Shown: positions 1-6,219 of the stretch, one piece after another
Layout of the letters: each line of letters begins with the position of its first letter
Position numbering within the stretch: position 1 is the stretch's first letter
IMG/VR virus record: IMGVR_UViG_2740892369_000021
Length of the DNA stretch: 6,219 bases
Source: a virus
Taxonomy: Duplodnaviria > Heunggongvirae > Uroviricota > Caudoviricetes
Strand: one strand, 5' to 3'
Made by a program: the position numbers and the translations under genes
Notes under the pieces: model-generated
Told to the model about the DNA's origin: nothing
Seen by the model: only the letters and a program-made list of their open reading frames with translations
Database searches by the model: none

Positions 1-295
1 AAATAGCCCAGCTATTGCCGCCCTGCAATCCCGCATTACGCGTGGCAGACTCTGCATGTTCCATTACCTGCTCGGTATCCTGACCACTACGCCAGGCGCA
101 GATACCAATGTGGATCATATCGTCGCGATCGAGCATTTTATTGTTCGGCAAGGTATCGACGGCTTTGATTAACTGACCGGCGATGCTCTCTGCCTCTTTT
201 AACGTCCGGTGCGCGGGAATTTTTTCTCTGCGTGAGAGGGGGGGCGGTGTCCGGAGCGATCGTTTTTTTCGCCGGATGATCCCCCCCGGGGCGGG
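1..295 (-). CDS. Partial ORF running off the window start; distal part of a degenerate GGDEF-like domain; start not identifiable; may be host gene fragment
   Basis: Minus-strand frame is open from 295 to 1 with no stop. Translation ...IPAHRTLKEAESIAGQLIKAVDTLPNNKMLDRDDMIHIGICAWRSGQDTEQVMEHAESATRNAGLQGGNSWAI resembles the last third of a GGDEF domain (IGI.. block, then AE.A....GGN where canonical domains have AD.ALY.AK..GRN). No ATG with a Shine-Dalgarno in the window; the bounding in-frame stop at 296-298 is the HNH stop. Plus-strand frame 2 is also open over 2..170, so the strand call is tentative. Confidence 0.3.
238..287. repeat. Homopolymer-rich imperfect inverted repeat: G7 (238-244), T7 (263-269), C7 (281-287), with inner arms TCCGG (250-254) / CCGGA (272-276)
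   Basis: Read directly from sequence. G7 and C7 can pair around the central T7. Lies immediately 3' of the HNH stop. Confidence 0.8.
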
Positions 296-661
296 TCACA
301 GTCCGATGATATCGTCTGCCCTGCCATGACCTCCGGACACCTCCGGCAGCGTCGGGTCCGGCATACCACCCGCCGCTTCACGAGCAGACTTTTGTCGATG
401 GCATTCGGTGCAGAGCGTCCAGAGATTCGTCTCCTCATTACCACCACCGAACTGAAGTGCAATGCGGTGATCGAGTTCACTGTCACAGAGGTCAACCACA
501 CGACCACAGAGACAGCACTGCCCGGCATCCCTCAGCCAGATATGACGCTTGAGGGAAACCCGGGCACTGCCACTGACACGACGCTGTTCCCCCTTCAGAA
601 TATTCACCCGTCGGGTATTCAGTGTTTTGATTCTGCTCTGGAGTGTACGAAGCTCAGCCAT
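296..661 (-). CDS. HNH endonuclease (phage packaging-associated type)
   Basis: 121-aa ORF with HNH signature CCLCGRVVDLCDSELDHRIALQFGGGNEETNLWTLCTECHRQK (Cys pair, DH, N, CxxCH). SD-like GGGGA 8 nt upstream of ATG at 661. Confidence 0.85.
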   Translation of the reverse strand: MAELRTLQSRIKTLNTRRVNILKGEQRRVSGSARVSLKRHIWLRDAGQCCLCGRVVDLCDSELDHRIALQFGGGNEETNLWTLCTECHRQKSAREAAGGMPDPTLPEVSGGHGRADDIIGL

Positions 662-702
662 GTAAAATCCCCGTCATATAACTTGTCACCAGAGGAAAGA
701 AA

Positions 703-903
703 ATGTCATCGAAAAACCGGACCCGCAGAACCACAACCCGCAATATCCGTTTCCCCAATCACATAATTGAACAAATCAACATAGCCCTTGAGCATAAAGG
801 GTCCGGTAACTTTTCAGCGTGGGTTATTGAAGCCTGCAGGAGAAGGCTGGCAACAGATGCAACGCATCTGCGCCCGGCCAGCATGACAAATAACGAGAAA
901 TGA
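703..903 (+). CDS. Small basic ribbon-helix-helix-like DNA-binding protein (66 aa); possibly the small prophage protein family found beside terminase genes
   Basis: Strong RBS GAGGAA 6-7 nt before ATG 703. Basic N-tail (SKNRTRRTTTR), predicted beta strand RNIRFP, helix, GSGN turn, helix FSAWVIEACRRRL matching the RHH helix-B pattern (S..I..A). Only convincing plus-strand gene in the window. The family assignment is from memory only. Confidence 0.55.
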   Translation: MSSKNRTRRTTTRNIRFPNHIIEQINIALEHKGSGNFSAWVIEACRRRLATDATHLRPASMTNNEK

Positions 904-1034
904 ACGTTCGGTTACAGGAGCAGGTACCCACTGTCCTCCAACAATATTTCATCTTCATATCCGACGGAACAAGACTTACCCTGCCGGGATGTACAGAATA
1001 ACAACAGAGTGATAATTAATTTCTGATGAAATAA

Positions 1035-1361
1035 TCAGGGTGCAGAAGGACTAAAGATAAACGTTTTCTTCACGCCTTTACACGGCCTGTCCTTCTCAAA
1101 TCGCCATTTTGCCATCGCCTTTACAACCTGCTCATCAAACAAATGGTGCGGCTCTGAACGGATAAACTCAATTCGGGTGACAGTACCATCAGCACCAATA
1201 TCAAACTTCACATCAACCCGTCCCTTTATATAATTTGCCGCTGCATAGGCCGGATATTGTGGTAATGCCTTAACCAACTGTCGGGGCATATCTGTTTTAT
1301 GTTGCGTACAGCCCATAACCAGAGAAGACAACAAAATAATTAACGGAAGATTTCTTTTCAT
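1035..1361 (-). CDS. Lipoprotein consisting of a TonB C-terminal domain (TonB_C-like), likely phage moron
   Basis: Signal peptide with lipobox MKRNLPLIILLSSLVMGC, then PQYPAYAAANYIKGRVDVKFDIGADGTVTRIEFIRSEPHHLFDEQVVKAMAKWRF, which aligns with E. coli TonB C-terminus [55 protein letters not shown]. Start chosen at ATG 1361 (SD-like GGGAA upstream); the ORF track begins at GTG 1376 and an alternative ATG is at 1367. Confidence 0.7.
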   Translation of the reverse strand: MKRNLPLIILLSSLVMGCTQHKTDMPRQLVKALPQYPAYAAANYIKGRVDVKFDIGADGTVTRIEFIRSEPHHLFDEQVVKAMAKWRFEKDRPCKGVKKTFIFSPSAP

Positions 1362-1381
1362 TTTCATTCCCGGCACAGATA

Positions 1382-1398
1382 AGAATAAGTCTTATTCT
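1382..1398. promoter_or_regulatory. 17-bp palindrome AGAATAAGTCTTATTCT (8-bp arms), operator-like, 20-37 bp upstream of the lipoprotein start; Fur-box-like
   Basis: Perfect inverted repeat read from sequence. Overlaps a candidate minus-strand -10 (TAGAAT, plus 1394-1399) with TTGATG -35 (plus 1419-1424, 19-bp spacer). Plus 1378-1396 GATAAGAATAAGTCTTATT matches the 19-bp Fur consensus GATAATGATAATCATTATC at 13/19. Confidence 0.4.
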
Positions 1399-1665
1399 AA
1401 CAATGCCACCCTGTCGGTCATCAATCCTCTGCTTAATGGCAACGACAATTATCCGACTTAAATCACAAATCAGACACATGACATCACAGAGCTTGCGAGG
1501 TAACACATCGTCCGGTTTCTTCCACCATCGCACCGGACCAGCGACCATGAGGGACAACGCCGCGCTCCGTTAACGCGGTAAACCCCGGTGTGTATCGTTT
1601 TTGATTATCCCGCACACTCTCGTAGAGGAGTCTCCCTGTCGGGCTGCGGTCTCTGTTAATGCGGG

Positions 1666-1698
1666 GATACGGCGACGATACGGCGACGATACGGCGCA
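1666..1698. repeat. Tandem 11-bp direct repeat, about 3 copies (GATACGGCGAC x2, GATACGGCGCA)
   Basis: Read directly. Starts 8 bp 3' of the Rha-family gene stop, inside a 330-bp non-coding gap. The 11-bp period equals one helical turn. Confidence 0.75.
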
Positions 1699-1706
1699 TG
1701 GCTATG

Positions 1707-2258
1707 TCAGGCTGAAATGCCTTTATCAAATCCGGGTAACGCAATCTGCCCCTGCTGCTCCAGCCTGTCCAGCCTTGCCAGCAACTGAGGCTTCTTCACC
1801 CTGCCCCAGCGATTGAGCAAACGACCTGACATACTGGCGACATCTTTCTCTTTCATGTACTCCAGCATTACAGCGTTGCGCTCCGCCTCCAGATTCGCCA
1901 GACCTTGCTGAATAAGCTCAGCCATCCAGTTGAAAGCCTGAATGTACGCTTCCTTAAAGGTCATAGCAGCTTTCCCCGTAAAACCAAATACCAACATCGT
2001 CCAACCGTCTTTTGTCATTCGATATATGGGCTGGGGTTTACCGTTCTGTAACTCATTGTTTTCATAGCAAAGCGCAAAATTGCGCTCTGCAAATTCTTTT
2101 GAGCATTGTTGAACAACGGCTCTTGTTTTCCGCAATACATCTTTGTGTTCTTTGCCAAATGCTACGGCAACCTTTCGGGTATCCGTCACCGGCTCGTTGC
2201 CTGTCACAAAAACAAGATCGCGGAAATCAATACCGTTAACAATCGTCGGATAGTTCAT
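1707..2258 (-). CDS. Rha-family phage regulatory protein
   Basis: N-terminal block VTDTRKVAVAFGKEHKDVLRK and KPQPIYRMTKDGWTMLVFGFTGKAAMTFKEAYIQAFNWM fit the Phage_pRha signature (T.SR.VA..FGK.H.nVLR ... mt.dGf..Lvmgf.g..a..fkeayi..Fn.m). SD-like AAAGG 9 nt before ATG 2258. Confidence 0.75.
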   Translation of the reverse strand: MNYPTIVNGIDFRDLVFVTGNEPVTDTRKVAVAFGKEHKDVLRKTRAVVQQCSKEFAERNFALCYENNELQNGKPQPIYRMTKDGWTMLVFGFTGKAAMTFKEAYIQAFNWMAELIQQGLANLEAERNAVMLEYMKEKDVASMSGRLLNRWGRVKKPQLLARLDRLEQQGQIALPGFDKGISA

Positions 2259-2267
2259 AGCGTCTTA

Positions 2268-2359
2268 CCTTTCAGAAAATTGAGCCTGTCTCACAGAAAA
2301 GCCGCCCCGAGATGGTCGCCACCATATACGACAGTTCTCAGGCTCAACTTTCTGAAAGG
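2268..2359. promoter_or_regulatory. Long inverted repeat: 21-bp arms (2268-2288 and 2339-2359, 20/21 complementary) around a 50-bp spacer; 3' arm of the minus-strand RNA contains the Rha gene Shine-Dalgarno
   Basis: Arm 1 CCTTTCAGAAAATTGAGCCTG; reverse complement of arm 2 is CCTTTCAGAAAGTTGAGCCTG. On the minus transcript the stem ends 9 nt before the Rha ATG and includes GAAAGG. Confidence 0.6.
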
Positions 2360-2369
2360 CTCGGGGATG

Positions 2370-2391
2370 TGATATGCGCGTGAGATGCGCG
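2370..2391. repeat. Tandem 11-bp direct repeat x2 (TGATATGCGCG / TGAGATGCGCG)
   Basis: Read directly; sits between the Rz terminator and the Rha-gene inverted repeat. Confidence 0.6.
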
Positions 2392-2407
2392 ATGAAATTC
2401 AGATATG

Positions 2408-2430
2408 AAAAAGCCAGCGATTAAGCTGGC
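2408..2430 (-). terminator. Intrinsic terminator 4 nt after Rz stop
   Basis: Minus strand: GCCAGC-ttaatc-GCTGGC (perfect 6-bp stem) followed by TTTTTCAT. Confidence 0.55.
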
Positions 2431-2434
2431 TCTG

Positions 2435-2893
2435 TTAATTCAGGCACTGAGTGCGGATATATTCCTGCGCCCCTTCCAGTTGCTTCTGCATTGTCATCAA
2501 CCGCTCTCTGAGGGTGAAATAATCCCGTTCAGCGGTGTCTGCCAGTCGGGGGCCGGTTGCATTATCCATTCCGGAGGTGCCGGTGGCTTCACGCACGGTA
2601 CCGGAGCAGGTGGCGTTGATCCGCAGGCGCTTACGACCAGCGGCAACATCAGCACGCAGAGTTTCATTTTCAGCTCTCGCATCGGCTAATTCCCTTGAGT
2701 ATCTGGCATCAAGCGCAGCAACATCACGCTGGCGCTGCTGCATGTCAGTAATGGTTGCGTTTGCCAGCTCCAGCTCTCTGGCTTTTTTATCGCGCTGCGC
2801 TTTGTAGGTGATGGCGTTATCACGGTAATGGTCTGTTGCCAGCCACAGCGCACTACAGACCACCAGCAGAATAACGGTAAACGCGGAAAGCAT
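2435..2893 (-). CDS. Rz: Rz i-spanin (inner-membrane spanin subunit), 152 aa
   Basis: MLSAFTVILLVVCSALWLATDHYRDNAITYKAQRDKKARELELANATITDMQQRQRDVAALDARYSRELADA...DTAERDYFTLRERLMTMQKQLEGAQEYIRTQCLN closely parallels lambda Rz (AVNHYRDNAITYKAQRD..., PRLADTAERDYFTLRERLITMQKQLEG). Start placed at ATG 2893, not the ORF-track start at 3001. Confidence 0.9.
   Translation of the reverse strand: MLSAFTVILLVVCSALWLATDHYRDNAITYKAQRDKKARELELANATITDMQQRQRDVAALDARYSRELADARAENETLRADVAAGRKRLRINATCSGTVREATGTSGMDNATGPRLADTAERDYFTLRERLMTMQKQLEGAQEYIRTQCLN
2497..2682 (-). CDS. Rz1: Rz1 o-spanin (outer-membrane lipoprotein), embedded in Rz in another frame
   Basis: MRELKMKLCVLMLPLVVSACGSTPPAPVPCVKPPAPPEWIMQPAPDWQTPLNGIISPSESG parallels lambda Rz1 (lipobox, Pro-rich, ...CVKPPPPPAWIMQPPPDWQTPLNGIISPSERG). 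Confidence 0.85.
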   Translation of the reverse strand: MRELKMKLCVLMLPLVVSACGSTPPAPVPCVKPPAPPEWIMQPAPDWQTPLNGIISPSESG

Positions 2894-2904
2894 TCGGTTT
2901 ATGC

Positions 2905-3036
2905 TCACCCCACCAGCCCTGCCGAAGTCAACGCCATCCAGGTTATGGAAAGAAAAAGAGCAACCAGCATTAGTGAAAATGAAATACCGACGATTACACA
3001 AAGGCCCTTCGCCAGCATTATGAGTTTGTCTGACAT
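2905..3036 (-). CDS. Small hydrophobic ORF, 43 aa (MSDKLIMLAKGLCVIVGISFSLMLVALFLSITWMALTSAGLVG), predicted membrane peptide
   Basis: Below the ORF-track size cutoff; found by hand translation. Strong SD AAGAGG 5 nt before ATG 3036. Start lies 2 nt after the stop of the preceding mini-ORF; stop lies 11 nt before the Rz ATG. Confidence 0.35.
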   Translation of the reverse strand: MSDKLIMLAKGLCVIVGISFSLMLVALFLSITWMALTSAGLVG

Positions 3037-3038
3037 CT

Positions 3039-3128
3039 TTACCTCTTAATAGCAGTAATTAACCGGGCAACCACCCATAAAAACGGAATCAGCCAGACCA
3101 GCAAAAATTTCCAGTCCATTTTTATCAT
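3039..3128 (-). CDS. Small hydrophobic ORF, 26-29 aa (MIKMDWKFLLVWLIPFLWVVARLITAIKR), predicted single-TM peptide
   Basis: In-frame ATGs at 3128 and 3119 (M-I-K-M). ATG 3128 is 2 nt after the antirepressor TGA stop, so translational coupling is possible. No good SD of its own. Confidence 0.3.
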   Translation of the reverse strand: MIKMDWKFLLVWLIPFLWVVARLITAIKR

Positions 3129-3130
3129 CT

Positions 3131-3826
3131 TCATGCTGCGGTAGCTCTCCATGCAGCAAGCAGACCAGCAATCCACTGAACACCTTTTGGGGTGAATTTA
3201 ACCTGCGTAAAAGCATGACCATTGCCCGCCTCGCCCGTTTTCACGCTAAACCGCCCCGCATCCAGGTGATGCGAGTAAGGCGTCATTTTTCCAGCGAGGC
3301 GATACATTATTCCGTTCTCCAACAAAAACAGCCGGAAATCGGTTTCTTTGATACCGAGTAACTTAGCAACTTCCCGGAATCCCATCAGACCAGATGCTTC
3401 AACATAGTTATCAACAAATTCAGCCTTCGGCGCTGCTATTGCCAGTTGATTTTCCAGCACTGCTTTCTGTTCAGCCAGTTTTGCCGCAAATCGCAACGCC
3501 TCAGGTAAAGTCCGGGGGATCTGAATACCATGCATCGCTTTGAGTCTTGCCAGCACAGAACGACGAACGGCCTTTGACTCCCTCATGCCAACGAGCATCA
3601 TCTGGTCAAAATCCAGATCATAGTATGCCGTTCTTGTCTGGTTATTGTTTAACCGGAATTTTTTTCCGGTTCCATCAAGCTCTAGCTCATCCTCAATTTT
3701 TGCAAGAAACTTACGCGGTTCATGAGGGACTTCTCCGGCTTCTGCCCGGGCTGGATTAATAATGTTATTCAGAAAATCCAGACTACTCATGGATATTTCA
3801 TGATCGACAGAAATCATCTCTTTCAT
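3131..3826 (-). CDS. Phage antirepressor, KilA-C/ANT-domain protein, inserted between R and Rz
   Basis: C-terminal block FREVAKLLGIKETDFRLFLLENGIMYRLAGKMTPYSHHLDAGRFSVKTGEAGNGHAFTQVKFTPKGVQWIAGLL fits the ANT/KilA-C antirepressor pattern. SD AAGGA 7 nt before ATG 3826. Confidence 0.7.
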   Translation of the reverse strand: MKEMISVDHEISMSSLDFLNNIINPARAEAGEVPHEPRKFLAKIEDELELDGTGKKFRLNNNQTRTAYYDLDFDQMMLVGMRESKAVRRSVLARLKAMHGIQIPRTLPEALRFAAKLAEQKAVLENQLAIAAPKAEFVDNYVEASGLMGFREVAKLLGIKETDFRLFLLENGIMYRLAGKMTPYSHHLDAGRFSVKTGEAGNGHAFTQVKFTPKGVQWIAGLLAAWRATAA

Positions 3827-3960
3827 GGTTGATTCCTTTTAGTGATGAACCCTGCGCACAGGAATAACCAGCCCAAAGAGGGTTAACCAGACCACTGCCG
3901 GTTATCCACCAGGGCTCATCCTGAAAGGTTCTTTGGTTTATTTACGCTTGTGCGAAGCGC

Positions 3961-3989
3961 AGAAATGACAAAGGCACCATTACGGTGCC
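3961..3989 (-). terminator. Intrinsic terminator between R and the antirepressor gene
   Basis: Minus strand: GGCACC-gtaat-GGTGCC (perfect 6-bp stem, extendable) followed by TTTGTCATTTCT. Confidence 0.5.
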
Positions 3990-4099
3990 TCTGCGTGAAA
4001 TAATCTGCCTAACTTTATTCACTTACATTTTGCCAGTTCGCAGGATTTCGTGTTATCCGCCCGCGCTGGCCAACGTCATTTTTCAGCAAAATATTCTGC

Positions 4100-4633
4100 T
4101 TATCTGTCGATTCCCCAGCACGCCAGCGCGCTCTCCTGGTCACGACGGGATACCTGACCATAACAGTTATTTGAGCGAATACGGCAGTCTCTGCCACCGT
4201 CCTTAATCCACCAGCGAATCGCTTCGCAGGCACCTTTTCGATCTCCTGCATTAATTCGTTTATAAAACGTCGACGGGAAACACTTACCTGGGCCAATGTT
4301 GTAAGGACAGAATGACGCAATACCCGCTTTCTGGGGTTCAGTCAGTGGCACTTTGATGTTTTTCTCCACCCATGCCAGCGCCTTATCACGCTCAATGGCG
4401 TTAACCTGGTCGCATTTCCCCTTCGACAGCTTCATGCCAGGAATAACAGGCTTACCATCCACCCGGGTGGCTCCACGGCAGATGGTCCAGATACCCGCAC
4501 CATCACGGTATGCCGTGGTGTGGTTGCCTTCCTTTTCATCCAGAAACTGGTCGAGGATTTCAGGCGCAGAAGCACCTGCGGCAATCAGCGCCAGAACGGC
4601 AGCCGATAAACCATAGCGGAGTTTCCTGCTCAT
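4100..4633 (-). CDS. R: SAR endolysin (T4-type lysozyme, GH24) with N-terminal signal-anchor-release domain
   Basis: N-terminal weakly hydrophobic Ala/Gly-rich segment YGLSAAVLALIAAGASA; catalytic triad spacing E-x8-D-x5-T in EKEGNHTTAYRDGAGIWT; overall likeness to phage 21 R. Starts 4 nt after the S stop. Confidence 0.9.
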   Translation of the reverse strand: MSRKLRYGLSAAVLALIAAGASAPEILDQFLDEKEGNHTTAYRDGAGIWTICRGATRVDGKPVIPGMKLSKGKCDQVNAIERDKALAWVEKNIKVPLTEPQKAGIASFCPYNIGPGKCFPSTFYKRINAGDRKGACEAIRWWIKDGGRDCRIRSNNCYGQVSRRDQESALACWGIDR

Positions 4634-4637
4634 CAGC

Positions 4638-4853
4638 TTACTCTCCCCGTGCCGCCTTACGCCTGTCCTCTCTGATTTTGAAATACAGGTTCGTCAGGTA
4701 CGTCAGCAGACCAAACAGCAGACTCCCCAGCACGCCTATTGCCGCCCACTGAGACGGGGAAACCCTGTCCAGCAACTGCAGGAACCAGTAGCCCGTTCCC
4801 ACCGCTGACGTGGTGTATGACACACCTGTTGTGATTTTTTCCATCTGGTTCAT
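4638..4853 (-). CDS. S: Class II holin / pinholin, S21 type, with dual-start motif (Met1 and Met4)
   Basis: [71 protein letters not shown] is near-identical in its C-terminal two-thirds to phage 21 S (…[51 protein letters not shown]). SD GGAGG 7 nt upstream. Confidence 0.9.
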
Positions 4854-4888
4854 ACCCCGCCTCCCGCAATCCGGAAGCTCACAACATG

Positions 4889-4918
4889 AAAAAGGCCAGC
4901 AGCTGTTTACTGATGGCC
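4889..4918 (-). terminator. Intrinsic terminator upstream of S
   Basis: Minus strand: GGCCATCAG-taaacag-CTGCTGGCC (9-bp stem, one mismatch) followed by TTTTTCATG. Confidence 0.55.
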
Positions 4919-4929
4919 CTGACTCCCCG

Positions 4930-5202
4930 TTACAGCATCATGACCGATTCGGGTTGAGGTTCAGTCGCATCGGCGACCGGTGATTCAGGCTGAACTTCAC
5001 CGCTCTCTGCGGTGGTATCTCCCGCTTCAGTCGGTGGCTCTGCCTGTACACCAAGCAGCTCATCCAGAATGGCATCAACCTCTGCATCAAGACGCGCCTC
5101 AAGATTCTGGCGGAGTTTTTGTTTCAGTGCGCTCAGGACTTCTTCAGAGCGCAGGACTTCCTTCACTGCCTCTGCAGTGACCAGGGATGTAATTTCTGAC
5201 AT
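4930..5202 (-). CDS. Hypothetical acidic protein, 90 aa (amphipathic helical N-half, Pro/Glu-rich C-tail)
   Basis: ATG at 5202 preferred over the ORF-track GTG at 5376 because a separate 59-aa ORF in another frame occupies 5243..5422. Sequence [51 protein letters not shown]... Weak SD. Confidence 0.45.
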
Positions 5203-5242
5203 GGGATTTTCTCGTCGAAAGGTGTGATTAAGAAAGTTGCCG

Positions 5243-5422
5243 CTAAATGAGCGGCTCTTCGGGTTTGCTTCCGGCTGACTGACTGGCGCTGATTTTCTCA
5301 GCGGCCCTTTTGTCAATCTGTCTGCGCCAGAAGTCACGCATGGCCCGGTATCCACCCGAAAGGAGATACAGCACACAGACCACCGTACAGAAGTACAGCA
5401 TTAACTGGTTCAGAAATGTCAT
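5243..5422 (-). CDS. Small membrane protein, 59 aa (N-terminal TM helix, basic then acidic tail)
   Basis: Hand-translated: MTFLNQLMLYFCTVVCVLYLLSGGYRAMRDFWRRQIDKRAAEKISASQSAGSKPEEPLI. SD-like GGAAAG upstream of ATG 5422. One residue under the apparent ORF-track size cutoff. Confidence 0.45.
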   Translation of the reverse strand: MTFLNQLMLYFCTVVCVLYLLSGGYRAMRDFWRRQIDKRAAEKISASQSAGSKPEEPLI

Positions 5423-5440
5423 AATTTCTTTCCGTTATTG

Positions 5441-5469
5441 TTGACAATAAGAACTGTTTTCATTAAAAA
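5441..5469 (+). promoter_or_regulatory. Candidate sigma70 promoter on the plus strand (-35 TTGACA 5441-5446, 17-bp spacer, -10 TAAAAA 5464-5469)
   Basis: Perfect -35 hexamer at ideal spacing; the -10 is weak and lacks the terminal T. Points away from the 59-aa ORF toward the plus-strand terminator. Confidence 0.3.
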
Positions 5470-5475
5470 ACCAGA

Positions 5476-5556
5476 GTACGAAAGTATCGTTCCTTTATTT
5501 TTTCTCCATAGGTATCACCACCGCCAGCGTCCATTCCTGTCGCTGGCGGTTTTTTT
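5476..5556 (+). ncRNA. Candidate small RNA of about 80 nt defined by the promoter and terminator pair; antisense to the region upstream of the 59-aa ORF
   Basis: No plus-strand ORF with a start codon lies between promoter and terminator. The terminator is orphan, on the strand opposite to every surrounding gene. Confidence 0.3.
5520..5556 (+). terminator. Strong intrinsic terminator on the plus strand
   Basis: ACCGCCAGCG-tccattcctgt-CGCTGGCGGT (perfect 9-10 bp GC-rich stem) followed by TTTTTTT (5550-5556). On the minus strand the same hairpin has no U-run after it. Confidence 0.65.
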
Positions 5557-5557
5557 A

Positions 5558-6219
5558 TCATGCCGCAGTGTCTGTGCTGTTCACTTCCACCACAATGCTG
5601 TCTATCAGTACCGGGTAAGTCGCATTCCTGGTAATGTCTGTCACATGCAGTTTATCCGCCGCAAATGCACTGACCGGTGACTGCGTCAGCGTGAACGGTG
5701 TGCCATCCTGACCATCAATAACCGGCGTCACCTGAAGGCTGTTATTCCCGGCAAAGCGGAAAGACAGCGTATGCCATTCGTTATCAAATGCGCCAAAGGT
5801 TCCCAGTTTCAGGTTGTTTGTCGCCACTTTCGCATTGTGGTACATCACATTCAGGTCTTTTGCATCTGTCTGGATGTAGAACGCTGCCAGCAGGTTATTC
5901 CCCCCGTCTCCGGTCAGGGCAACGCCCTGTGGCAGTGAAGATACCGGCCAGTAAAACGCCATAACATACTGGTTCGCAGCCAGCGCTCCCGAAACCTTAA
6001 AGCGGCAGCGAATCTGCCCCCCTTTCTGTAACAGAGCCGCACCGTTGCCCGCGGCGTACTCCAGCACCCAGCTGCTTTTACCGGCTTCCTTGGTCAGCTT
6101 CACTGCCTTACCTCCGGTTCCCTCCGCATCGCTGACCACTTCTGCCCTGCCGCCACTGGCTGACCATCCCTGTACTTTCAGGCTTCCCTCTGACTCGCTG
6201 GCAAGGTAAGAGAGCAGTG
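5558..6219 (-). CDS. C-terminal ~220 aa of a larger protein running off the window end; possible beta-sandwich/lectin-like domain of a cargo protein
   Basis: Minus frame is open from 6219 to the TGA at 5558-5560 (the ORF-track start at 6139 is an internal GTG). Sequence ...WHTLSFRFAGNNSLQVTPVIDGQDGTPFTLTQSPVSAF... Its position upstream of S is where Stx-type phages carry a large nanS-p-like esterase; that identity is a guess from position and composition. Confidence 0.6.
   Translation of the reverse strand, partial: LLSYLASESEGSLKVQGWSASGGRAEVVSDAEGTGGKAVKLTKEAGKSSWVLEYAAGNGAALLQKGGQIRCRFKVSGALAANQYVMAFYWPVSSLPQGVALTGDGGNNLLAAFYIQTDAKDLNVMYHNAKVATNNLKLGTFGAFDNEWHTLSFRFAGNNSLQVTPVIDGQDGTPFTLTQSPVSAFAADKLHVTDITRNATYPVLIDSIVVEVNSTDTAA

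Follow-up and report, generated by a model that had tools for sequence, protein, structure and literature searches.

What a prophage might gain from a TonB C-terminal domain detached from the rest of TonB is the question raised by a gene in a 6,219-nt stretch of DNA (hereafter the window) from a tailed virus of the class Caudoviricetes (IMG/VR record IMGVR_UViG_2740892369_000021). The gene lies on the minus strand at window positions 1035–1361 and encodes a small protein in which a predicted lipoprotein signal peptide leads directly into a stand-alone TonB C-terminal domain. From its fold, its short predicted tether, its distribution, and the promoter regions of its relatives, we tentatively propose that the protein may act as a decoy that competes with TonB for the TonB boxes of outer-membrane transporters, and we weigh this proposal against the alternatives below.

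The gene and its annotation

The initial annotation had placed an open reading frame (ORF) at 1035–1361; the ORF is real, and its strand can now be specified as minus, with the stop codon at 1035–1037 and a product of 108 amino acids. The best start is the ATG at 1361, which has a Shine-Dalgarno-like motif, GGGAA, 5–6 nt upstream, whereas the alternative in-frame starts, ATG 1367 and GTG 1376, are less well positioned. Read from ATG 1361, the full protein is MKRNLPLIILLSSLVMGCTQHKTDMPRQLVKALPQYPAYAAANYIKGRVDVKFDIGADGTVTRIEFIRSEPHHLFDEQVVKAMAKWRFEKDRPCKGVKKTFIFSPSAP, and its parts are as follows.

1035..1361, minus strand: coding sequence (CDS) for a lipoprotein signal peptide plus a stand-alone TonB C-terminal domain (ORF call, Pfam/TIGR, phmmer, and RefSeq; dN/dS, the ratio of nonsynonymous to synonymous substitution rates, 0.12 against the phage-21 allele)
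1308..1361, minus strand: signal peptide with lipobox, MKRNLPLIILLSSLVMG-C18 (from sequence; lipidation predicted at Cys18, with Thr at +2)
1287..1307, minus strand: seven-residue tether, TQHKTDM, from the lipid-bearing Cys to the domain (from the alignment)
1050..1286, minus strand: TonB_C domain, residues 26–104, equivalent to E. coli TonB 153–231 (Pfam, phmmer, AlphaFold2 model, and Foldseek)

RefSeq holds an identical CDS of 327 nt (WP_000828068.1, "TonB family protein"); older labels on the gene include "tonB-like membrane protein ... CP-933N", "partial tonB-like", and "TonB fragment", and the curated record of phage 21 calls it "TonB C-terminal domain protein". The gene has therefore been annotated for years and is uncharacterised rather than unnoticed. 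No functional study of a stand-alone phage TonB_C lipoprotein was found in the full-text literature, a coverage that leaves subscription-only papers outside. The earlier statement that no such phage system had been described thus stands for function, within the full-text literature, and falls for the gene itself, which was long annotated. The protein had no meaningful match among the PADLOC defence-system models and no structural relative at E ≤ 0.001 in the BFVD viral structure library.

The domain has the TonB C-terminal fold

The protein matches the Pfam profile TonB_C (PF03544) with 54.9 bits (cutoff 24.6; E = 1.3e-14) and TIGR01352, tonB_Cterm, with 54.6 bits (cutoff 27.1). In a phmmer search against the PDB, residues 24–104 align without a gap with E. 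coli TonB 151–231 (1u07, 2gsk, 2grx, and 9ddo; E about 1e-15 to 1e-16) at 37–43% identity, and the first TonB-aligned residue after the tether is P26, the equivalent of TonB P153. Profiles for full-length TonB equivalogs (NCBIfam PRK10819) give at best 74.2 bits, against cutoffs of 265–448, the match being confined to the C-terminal third of the profile.

An AlphaFold2 model was built from a 30-sequence alignment of the family (predicted local distance difference test, pLDDT, 87 for the whole protein and above 96 within the domain). In this model the protein adopts a fold of the TonB C-terminal domain (CTD) type, in which helices pack on a three-stranded sheet and the elements follow one another as a short strand, helix 1, beta1, beta2, helix 2, and beta3. 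The model superimposes on TonB bound to BtuB (2gsk_B) with a root-mean-square deviation (rmsd) of 1.0 Å over 79 columns (TMt 0.92), on TonB bound to FhuA (2grx_C) with an rmsd of 1.1 Å, and matches 1u07_A with E = 1e-8. The PDB entries that match it best are, without exception, C-terminal domains of TonB, and the top 50 Foldseek PDB matches are all of the TonB/TolA type. The initial annotation had claimed a residue-by-residue alignment with the TonB C-terminal domain and had named a Pfam TonB_C search and a structure prediction as its checks; the gap-free alignment, the Pfam hit, and the modelled fold all agree with it.

Residues of the protein can be converted to TonB numbering by adding 127, as given by the alignment with 9ddo_F. 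On this scale, P34, Y36, P37, F53, F75, W86, and F103 are identical to TonB P161, Y163, P164, F180, F202, W213, and F230, respectively; G186 is likewise identical, and Y215 is replaced by F. The third beta strand is kept (model residues 94–103), and the protein ends right after it, with no equivalent of TonB 232–239. In the BtuB:TonB and FhuA:TonB complexes (2GSK/2GRX), the TonB box pairs with beta3.

A predicted lipid anchor and a short tether

The N-terminus consists of a positively charged n-region (MKRN), a hydrophobic h-region (LPLIILLSS), and a lipobox (LVMG followed by Cys). The Met at −2 is non-canonical under the strictest lipobox pattern and acceptable under the broader PROSITE-type rule. 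The lipobox Cys is invariant in all 30 aligned relatives, and the residue at +2 is Ser, Ala, Thr, or Val, never Asp; Cys18 is thus a probable site of lipidation. In E. coli, the Lol sorting rule sends lipoproteins with a +2 residue other than Asp to the outer membrane. Because Asp never occurs at +2 in the family (it is Thr here), Lol-dependent sorting to the outer membrane is predicted.

The 18-residue signal peptide is the sole hydrophobic segment of the protein, which has no second such segment, no membrane anchor, and no proline-rich region. The earlier description, a lipoprotein signal fused directly to the domain with neither the TonB anchor nor its proline-rich spacer, is thus borne out by the invariant Cys, the seven-residue tether, and the total length of 108 residues. 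From the Cys to the PxYP motif there are 15 residues in the window protein and 14–27 across the family (mode 18). Judged by its length, so short a tether would suit a partner on the periplasmic side of the outer membrane and not one at the peptidoglycan or the inner membrane.

The gene is widespread and belongs to a broader enterobacterial family

By blastn, the gene is present in 1616 of 5426 complete E. coli genomes (~30%), and E. coli K-12 lacks it; nearly all copies are chromosomal, and their annotation is always "TonB family protein". They fall into two allele groups, one with at least 95% nucleotide identity to the window gene (414 genomes) and one with about 74% (1201 genomes). The second group, the commonest in E. 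coli, is the phage-21 allele, whose product shares 72% amino acid identity with the window protein. Between the two alleles dN/dS is 0.12, with a dS of about 1.5, values which indicate that the protein is under strong purifying selection; because of this ratio, the labels "partial gene" and "fragment" are misleading. The gene follows S21-R21-Rz/Rz1 and bor/iss and precedes cos/terminase both in phage 21 and in ATCC 11775, the E. coli type strain. Between the phage-21-type allele and the serum-resistance gene iss/bor, which is on the opposite strand, there are 480 nt (3227–3520 and 4001–4327 in the ATCC 11775 locus, and likewise in phage 21), and iss-positive prophages in studies of extraintestinal pathogenic (ExPEC) and avian pathogenic (APEC) E. 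coli therefore usually carry the TonB_C gene too.

An exhaustive HMMER and profile search defined the family as proteins of 107–135 residues with a lipobox and one TonB_C domain, found in Escherichia, Salmonella, Klebsiella, Sodalis, Rahnella, Pantoea, and Erwinia. Three phage relatives, one in a Sodalis prophage (49% identity), one in a Klebsiella phage (40%), and one in a Rahnella prophage (35%), likewise use the slot immediately after the lysis genes and before the terminase. Most members of a sister group come from Pantoea, Erwinia, and their allies, and one copy is from Salmonella; they are single genes in varied chromosomal neighbourhoods, and no lysis or packaging genes were found within 5–6 kb of them. 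The architecture is not phage-specific, because this chromosomal sister group has no phage genes nearby; the phages carry one branch of a broader enterobacterial family and did not invent it. The initial annotation's "prophage cargo gene" therefore describes the window copy, which sits in a phage slot and cassette, and does not extend to the architecture, which Pantoea and Erwinia chromosomes share.

On one uncultured Pantoea contig (L011), the TonB_C lipoprotein gene (6001–6327) adjoins an integrase fragment (5131–5739), a pore-forming colicin-family gene (PF01024, 3208–4290), and an adjacent small ORF (4614–5027). In the sister contig L012 another island occupies this position, so the TonB_C gene borders an integration hotspot.

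Relatives carry predicted Fur boxes

Upstream regions were anchored on the true start codon of each gene and scored against the 19-nt Fur consensus. The match is 17/19 in the Sodalis prophage, at −30, and in two Pantoea-type loci, at −36; it is 16/19 in Erwinia, at −35, and in Pantoea agglomerans, at −36 (after correction of an over-long gene call). Eight further relatives have matches of 14–15/19 between −30 and −54. The sites, mostly at −30 to −36, span at least five types of upstream sequence, and in several relatives a perfect TATAAT is embedded in the Fur box. Over 132 kb of these loci, the background rate of matches of at least 16/19 is 5e-5 per position. A positive control was provided by a 50-kb phage of the Shiga toxin 1a (Stx1a) type, in which the sole strong Fur match lies ~110 nt upstream of stxA1, at the iron-regulated stx1 promoter. 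These Fur boxes tie the family to the iron/TonB regulon and predict, by their sequence, that the Fur regulon of Sodalis, Pantoea, Erwinia, and related bacteria includes a member yet to be characterised.

The stx1 Fur box is GAAAATGATAATCATATTC, on the minus strand with a match of 16/19 (20153–20171 of that phage locus, L114), and lies in the same prophage ~8 kb from the TonB_C gene; this prophage thus carries one confirmed iron-regulated cargo gene, stx1.

The upstream region of the window gene holds weaker sites of the same kinds, listed here with the Fur-box loci of the relatives.

L010 5971–5989; L011, L012, and L099, ~36 nt before the start; also L013, L005, L100–L105, L108, L109, and L112: Fur boxes of relatives, 14–17/19
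1378..1396, minus strand: Fur-box-like 19-mer, AATAAGACTTATTCTTATC, 13/19, 35 nt before the start (~0.14 expected per region)
1382..1398, no strand assigned: perfect 8-1-8 palindrome, AGAATAAG-N-CTTATTCT, candidate operator, overlapping the −10-like hexamer
1394..1421, minus strand: promoter-like ATGACC, 16 nt, TAGAAT, with an upstream TG (extended −10-like, TGTTAGAAT), 9/12

No Fur box with three or fewer mismatches was found in the window, and the 13/19 site surfaced under relaxed scoring; the Klebsiella phage has a 12/19 match at −37. The TAGAAT of the promoter-like element aligns with the perfect TATAAT of the chromosomal relatives. On our reading of these upstream sequences, the family was probably Fur-controlled ancestrally, and this control was weakened or lost in the E. 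coli phage alleles.

The palindrome is unchanged in 59 of 67 viral contigs, and phage 21 keeps only its 5′ half. Among the 67 contigs there are 2 variable sites in the 23 nt of the palindrome core and about 8 in the 37 nt outside it, numbers too small to claim constraint. A role as a phage immunity operator was ruled out, because the palindrome occurs as a single copy, even when three mismatches are allowed, in a 50-kb phage genome with an identical gene.

A candidate TonB-box decoy and its alternatives

TonB-dependent transporters are the entry route for iron, vitamin B12, many phages, colicins, microcins, and siderophore-antibiotic conjugates. The best-supported mechanism for the window protein, which we hold tentatively and at somewhat less than an even chance, is that of a decoy competing for their TonB boxes. 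The lipoprotein would present TonB's receptor-docking domain, on a short tether, immediately beneath these transporters, where it could dock and could not deliver energy, because the fold of the TonB CTD is kept but the inner-membrane anchor, the spacer, and any link to ExbB/ExbD are missing. By beta-strand capture it would bind TonB boxes exposed on outer-membrane transporters and perhaps those on incoming group B colicins, and its competition with genuine TonB would damp or block the import of TonB-dependent phages, colicins, microcins, and siderophore-linked antibiotics and, as a cost, of siderophores and B12. The protein would be made at least during lytic growth, since late lytic transcription is expected from its orientation with the late operon downstream of the lysis genes; in the lysogen it might be made from its own, perhaps iron-regulated, promoter.

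This mechanism, which the initial annotation had already put forward as its own inference, is consistent with the kept PxYP motif, aromatic core, and beta3 strand, the short tether, the purifying selection, the Fur boxes of the relatives, and laboratory precedent. An over-produced periplasmic TonB domain inhibits iron import via TonB-dependent transporters (Howard et al., 2001, as summarised in PMC9841981), and a TonB-box pentapeptide lowers colicin killing and phi80 infection (Tuckman & Osburne, 1992, as cited in PMC9841981).

Several observations weigh against a decoy. Two TonB residues implicated in contact with the TonB box or the receptor differ in the window protein: Q160, the site of the classical suppressors of TonB-box mutations, is Leu here and Tyr in phage 21, and R166 is Tyr. 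The apparently Fur-derepressed relatives in Pantoea and Erwinia would be switched on when iron uptake is needed, a timing that sits badly with pure inhibition and would suit a helper no less, and the existence of chromosomal relatives outside phages makes a purely inhibitory anti-phage role less certain. The Fur-like site of the window reaches only 13/19, its 3′ half is missing in the phage-21 allele that is commonest in E. coli, and the number of promoter-like sites in the region is not above that in shuffled sequences. Blocking TonB in general would burden the lysogen or host. Finally, the N-terminus of the receptor-bound CTD would have to be oriented so that a seven-residue tether reaches the membrane, an orientation that is presumed.

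The Fur boxes lead to the converse idea that the protein assists TonB-dependent uptake as a positive accessory, induced together with the transporters when iron is scarce. FhuD and BtuF are reported to bind the TonB CTD, and a helper might recruit such periplasmic binding proteins or keep TonB boxes or plug domains primed; on this view the phage would improve its host's acquisition of iron, a lysogenic-conversion benefit beside the iron-regulated Stx1. Strong Fur boxes in the chromosomal and Sodalis-phage relatives, stable chromosomal copies in non-phage contexts of Pantoea and Erwinia, and purifying selection would all suit this role. Yet the domain would compete with TonB for the same TonB-box strand, the only precedent for a free TonB CTD is inhibition, no partner gene travels with it among its varying neighbours, and the Fur box is weak or absent in the E. 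coli alleles, so that we consider a helper unlikely. An equally doubtful proposal is that the TonB_C/TolA-III fold serves here as a general periplasmic adaptor for a partner without a TonB box, such as another outer-membrane protein, a component of an incoming phage or bacteriocin, or the periplasmic domain of ExbD. The changes at Q160 and R166 point in this direction, as do the motifs conserved specifically in the family (SEPxHLFD and KWRFExxKP) and the diverse ligands bound by the related TolA domain III, whose complexes are among the weak Foldseek matches. These motifs, however, coincide with the conserved core of TonB itself, the nearest proteins by sequence and structure are genuine enterobacterial TonB CTDs (37–43% identity), and a seven-residue tether excludes partners in the inner membrane.

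The remaining explanations give the protein a role in lysis or none at all. As a lysis or envelope accessory, it would be an outer-membrane lipoprotein that links to peptidoglycan or acts in outer-membrane disruption or stabilisation at lysis. It lies directly downstream of lysis cassettes, in late orientation, in five phage lineages; the TonB CTD is reported to associate with peptidoglycan; and the PHROGs family phrog_1267, labelled "Rz-like spanin" in the category lysis, matches the protein end to end (E = 7.7e-43). Despite this profile match, the protein has the features of neither an i-, an o-, nor a u-spanin: it lacks a C-terminal transmembrane domain, a coiled coil, and the proline-rich character of an o-spanin, and is a globular TonB_C domain instead. 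The phage has its own complete Rz with an embedded Rz1, the tether is too short for the peptidoglycan layer, and the chromosomal relatives, which are preceded by Fur boxes, are not close to lysis genes; together these points make such a role highly improbable. The spanin label of phrog_1267 looks like an annotation error, most likely spread from the names of adjoining genes, that will pass into phage genome annotations. A functionless fragment of host tonB, gained by illegitimate recombination and passively carried, would account for the old "partial" and "TonB fragment" labels and for the many truncated or frameshifted database copies (e.g., P0010, P0013, P0018, and P0021). With a dN/dS of 0.12 at near-saturated synonymous change, an added signal peptide whose Cys is invariant in 30/30 relatives, a position conserved across genera at 35–49% identity, and intact copies in ~30% of E. 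coli genomes, a dead fragment is effectively refuted by the selection and conservation data.

Genomic setting and cassette boundaries

Window positions 214–6219 are 100% identical to Stx1a prophages of E. coli strains that make Shiga toxin (STEC strains of the O103/O26 type) and to sequenced Stx1a-converting phages. On the minus strand, the order is stx1AB, a NanS-p-type esterase, DUF1378 and DUF826 genes, an S21-type holin, lysozyme, a KilAC antirepressor, Rz (in which Rz1 is embedded), and Rha; the TonB_C lipoprotein gene follows after an intergenic gap of ~345 nt, and beyond it come a convergent ylcI-like gene and then HNH endonuclease, terS, and terL. The slot between Rz and the packaging genes proposed by the initial annotation is thus confirmed, with Rz at 2435–2899 (Pfam Phage_lysis, E = 5e-50) and its embedded Rz1 lipoprotein gene at 2497–2682 on one side and HNH/terminase on the other. 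Two further features delimit the DNA that moves with the gene.

703..903, plus strand: convergent gene of the YlcI/YnfO family (DUF3950), downstream neighbour in 75 of 80 viral contigs
1362..1700, minus strand: upstream DNA travelling with the gene, with a cassette boundary at ~1600–1700 (homology among viral contigs)

Limits of homology were compared by gapped BLAST among the 80 viral contigs that carry the window allele. In 66 of them, homology to the window stops at ~1600–1700, away from contig edges and 240–340 nt upstream of the start codon. Given this shared boundary and the near-constant ylcI-like neighbour, the gene moves as a cassette with ~240–340 nt of upstream DNA. The 300-bp upstream region ascribed to the gene at the outset was therefore correct and is now sharpened to a 345-nt gap, up to Rha, with a boundary inside it. 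The G+C content is 39–45% over ~900–1500 and 52–58% in the flanks; low G+C, presence or absence among genomes, and a mosaic boundary are features of a moron. RefSeq places a doubtful 71-residue ORF inside the gap (1484–1699); this ORF was rejected as a conserved partner gene, since phage 21 and the window allele do not share its reading frame. A perfect 11-nt tandem repeat, GATACGGCGAC, present in 2.8 copies at 1666–1696, lies within it at the upstream edge of the cassette, near the break in homology. A pattern scan found no intrinsic terminator downstream of the TonB_C gene, and the predicted folding of 900–1045 is not above that of shuffled sequences (z = 0.42).

The lysis cassette of the window is interrupted by the KilAC-domain antirepressor gene (3131–3826, minus strand), which lies between lysozyme and Rz, and Rz is followed by a Rha-family regulator with an ORF11CD3 domain (1707–2258, minus strand); 3 kb of the late region thus contain several cargo insertions. 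At the far end, 5558–6139 (minus strand) encodes the C-terminal DUF6645 part of a 645-residue carbohydrate esterase of the SASA family (NanS-p type), which runs off the window. Positions 1–213 are 100% identical to the core chromosomal gene csrD, present in 5426 of 5426 genomes, and prophage DNA begins at 214. The csrD/prophage junction at 213/214 is joined in none of the complete E. coli genomes in the collection, whose best matches cover 214–6219 only; it reflects either a chimeric assembly or, uniquely in the source, a rearrangement or a truncation of the prophage.

Implications and comparison with known systems

A broader proposal, which we regard as possible and on balance doubtful, is that Enterobacterales possess a widespread family of TonB-domain decoys, anchored in the outer membrane and linked to Fur, which was captured by lambdoid phages and has spread to about one third of E. 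coli, including Stx phages and the iss-carrying prophages of ExPEC, where it protects lysogens broadly against TonB-dependent phages, group B colicins, and microcins. If so, prophages would have a new route to retune or shut TonB-dependent import for all receptors at once. Being built from the TonB docking domain itself, such a decoy would exclude generically and independently of the receptor, in contrast to Llp and Cor, which are specific to one receptor. It could also make lysogens less susceptible to antibiotics conjugated to siderophores, such as cefiderocol and albomycin, and would offer TonB research a natural dominant-negative or docking-only TonB domain. Whether it inhibits or assists, the gene is a compact and easily testable candidate for lysogenic conversion, for which the predicted Fur control of its relatives supplies a clear regulatory hypothesis. 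The domain family was already known; the link to Fur and the chromosomal sister group were unanticipated.

The closest known counterpart is TonB itself, whose CTD (PDB 1U07, 1XX3, 2GSK B, 2GRX C, and 8RD6) is homologous to the window domain at ~37–43% identity and an rmsd of 1.0–1.4 Å. The window protein differs in lacking the inner-membrane anchor, the proline-rich spacer, and TonB 232–239, and in having a lipoprotein signal instead; because it reaches at best 74 bits against TonB equivalog cutoffs of 265–448, it cannot transduce energy. Other proteins with a TonB_C fold, namely FusB, HasB, and TonB2, are dedicated to particular receptors or substrates, and the FusB CTD (7zc8) is among the top structural matches of the model. 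They keep the inner-membrane anchor and the coupling to ExbBD, and they energise transport. The engineered periplasmic TonB fragments of Howard, Herrmann, Stratilo, and Braun (2001, J Bacteriol 183:5885), as summarised in PMC9841981, are likewise exported, anchor-free TonB CTDs and form the direct laboratory analogue of the proposed mechanism; they were artificial, soluble, and over-produced, whereas the window protein is natural, predicted to be lipid-anchored in the outer membrane, and under selection.

Among phage proteins, Llp of T5 and Cor of phi80, N15, and HK022 are also small lipoproteins of the inner leaflet of the outer membrane that act from the periplasm on a TonB-dependent transporter, FhuA. 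Their fold is unrelated as judged by the top 50 Foldseek PDB matches of the model, which contain no Llp entry, a basis that does not include a direct pairwise comparison. Llp acts allosterically on one receptor, whereas a TonB_C mimic would target the TonB box common to all such transporters, and Cor lies near the tail genes, in another position than the TonB_C gene. The moron Bor/Iss is the nearest parallel in position: it, too, is outer-membrane lipoprotein cargo between Rz and cos/terminase, and it adjoins the TonB_C gene in phage 21 and the E. coli type strain; it differs in being an unrelated protein, encoded on the opposite strand, with a known serum-resistance phenotype.

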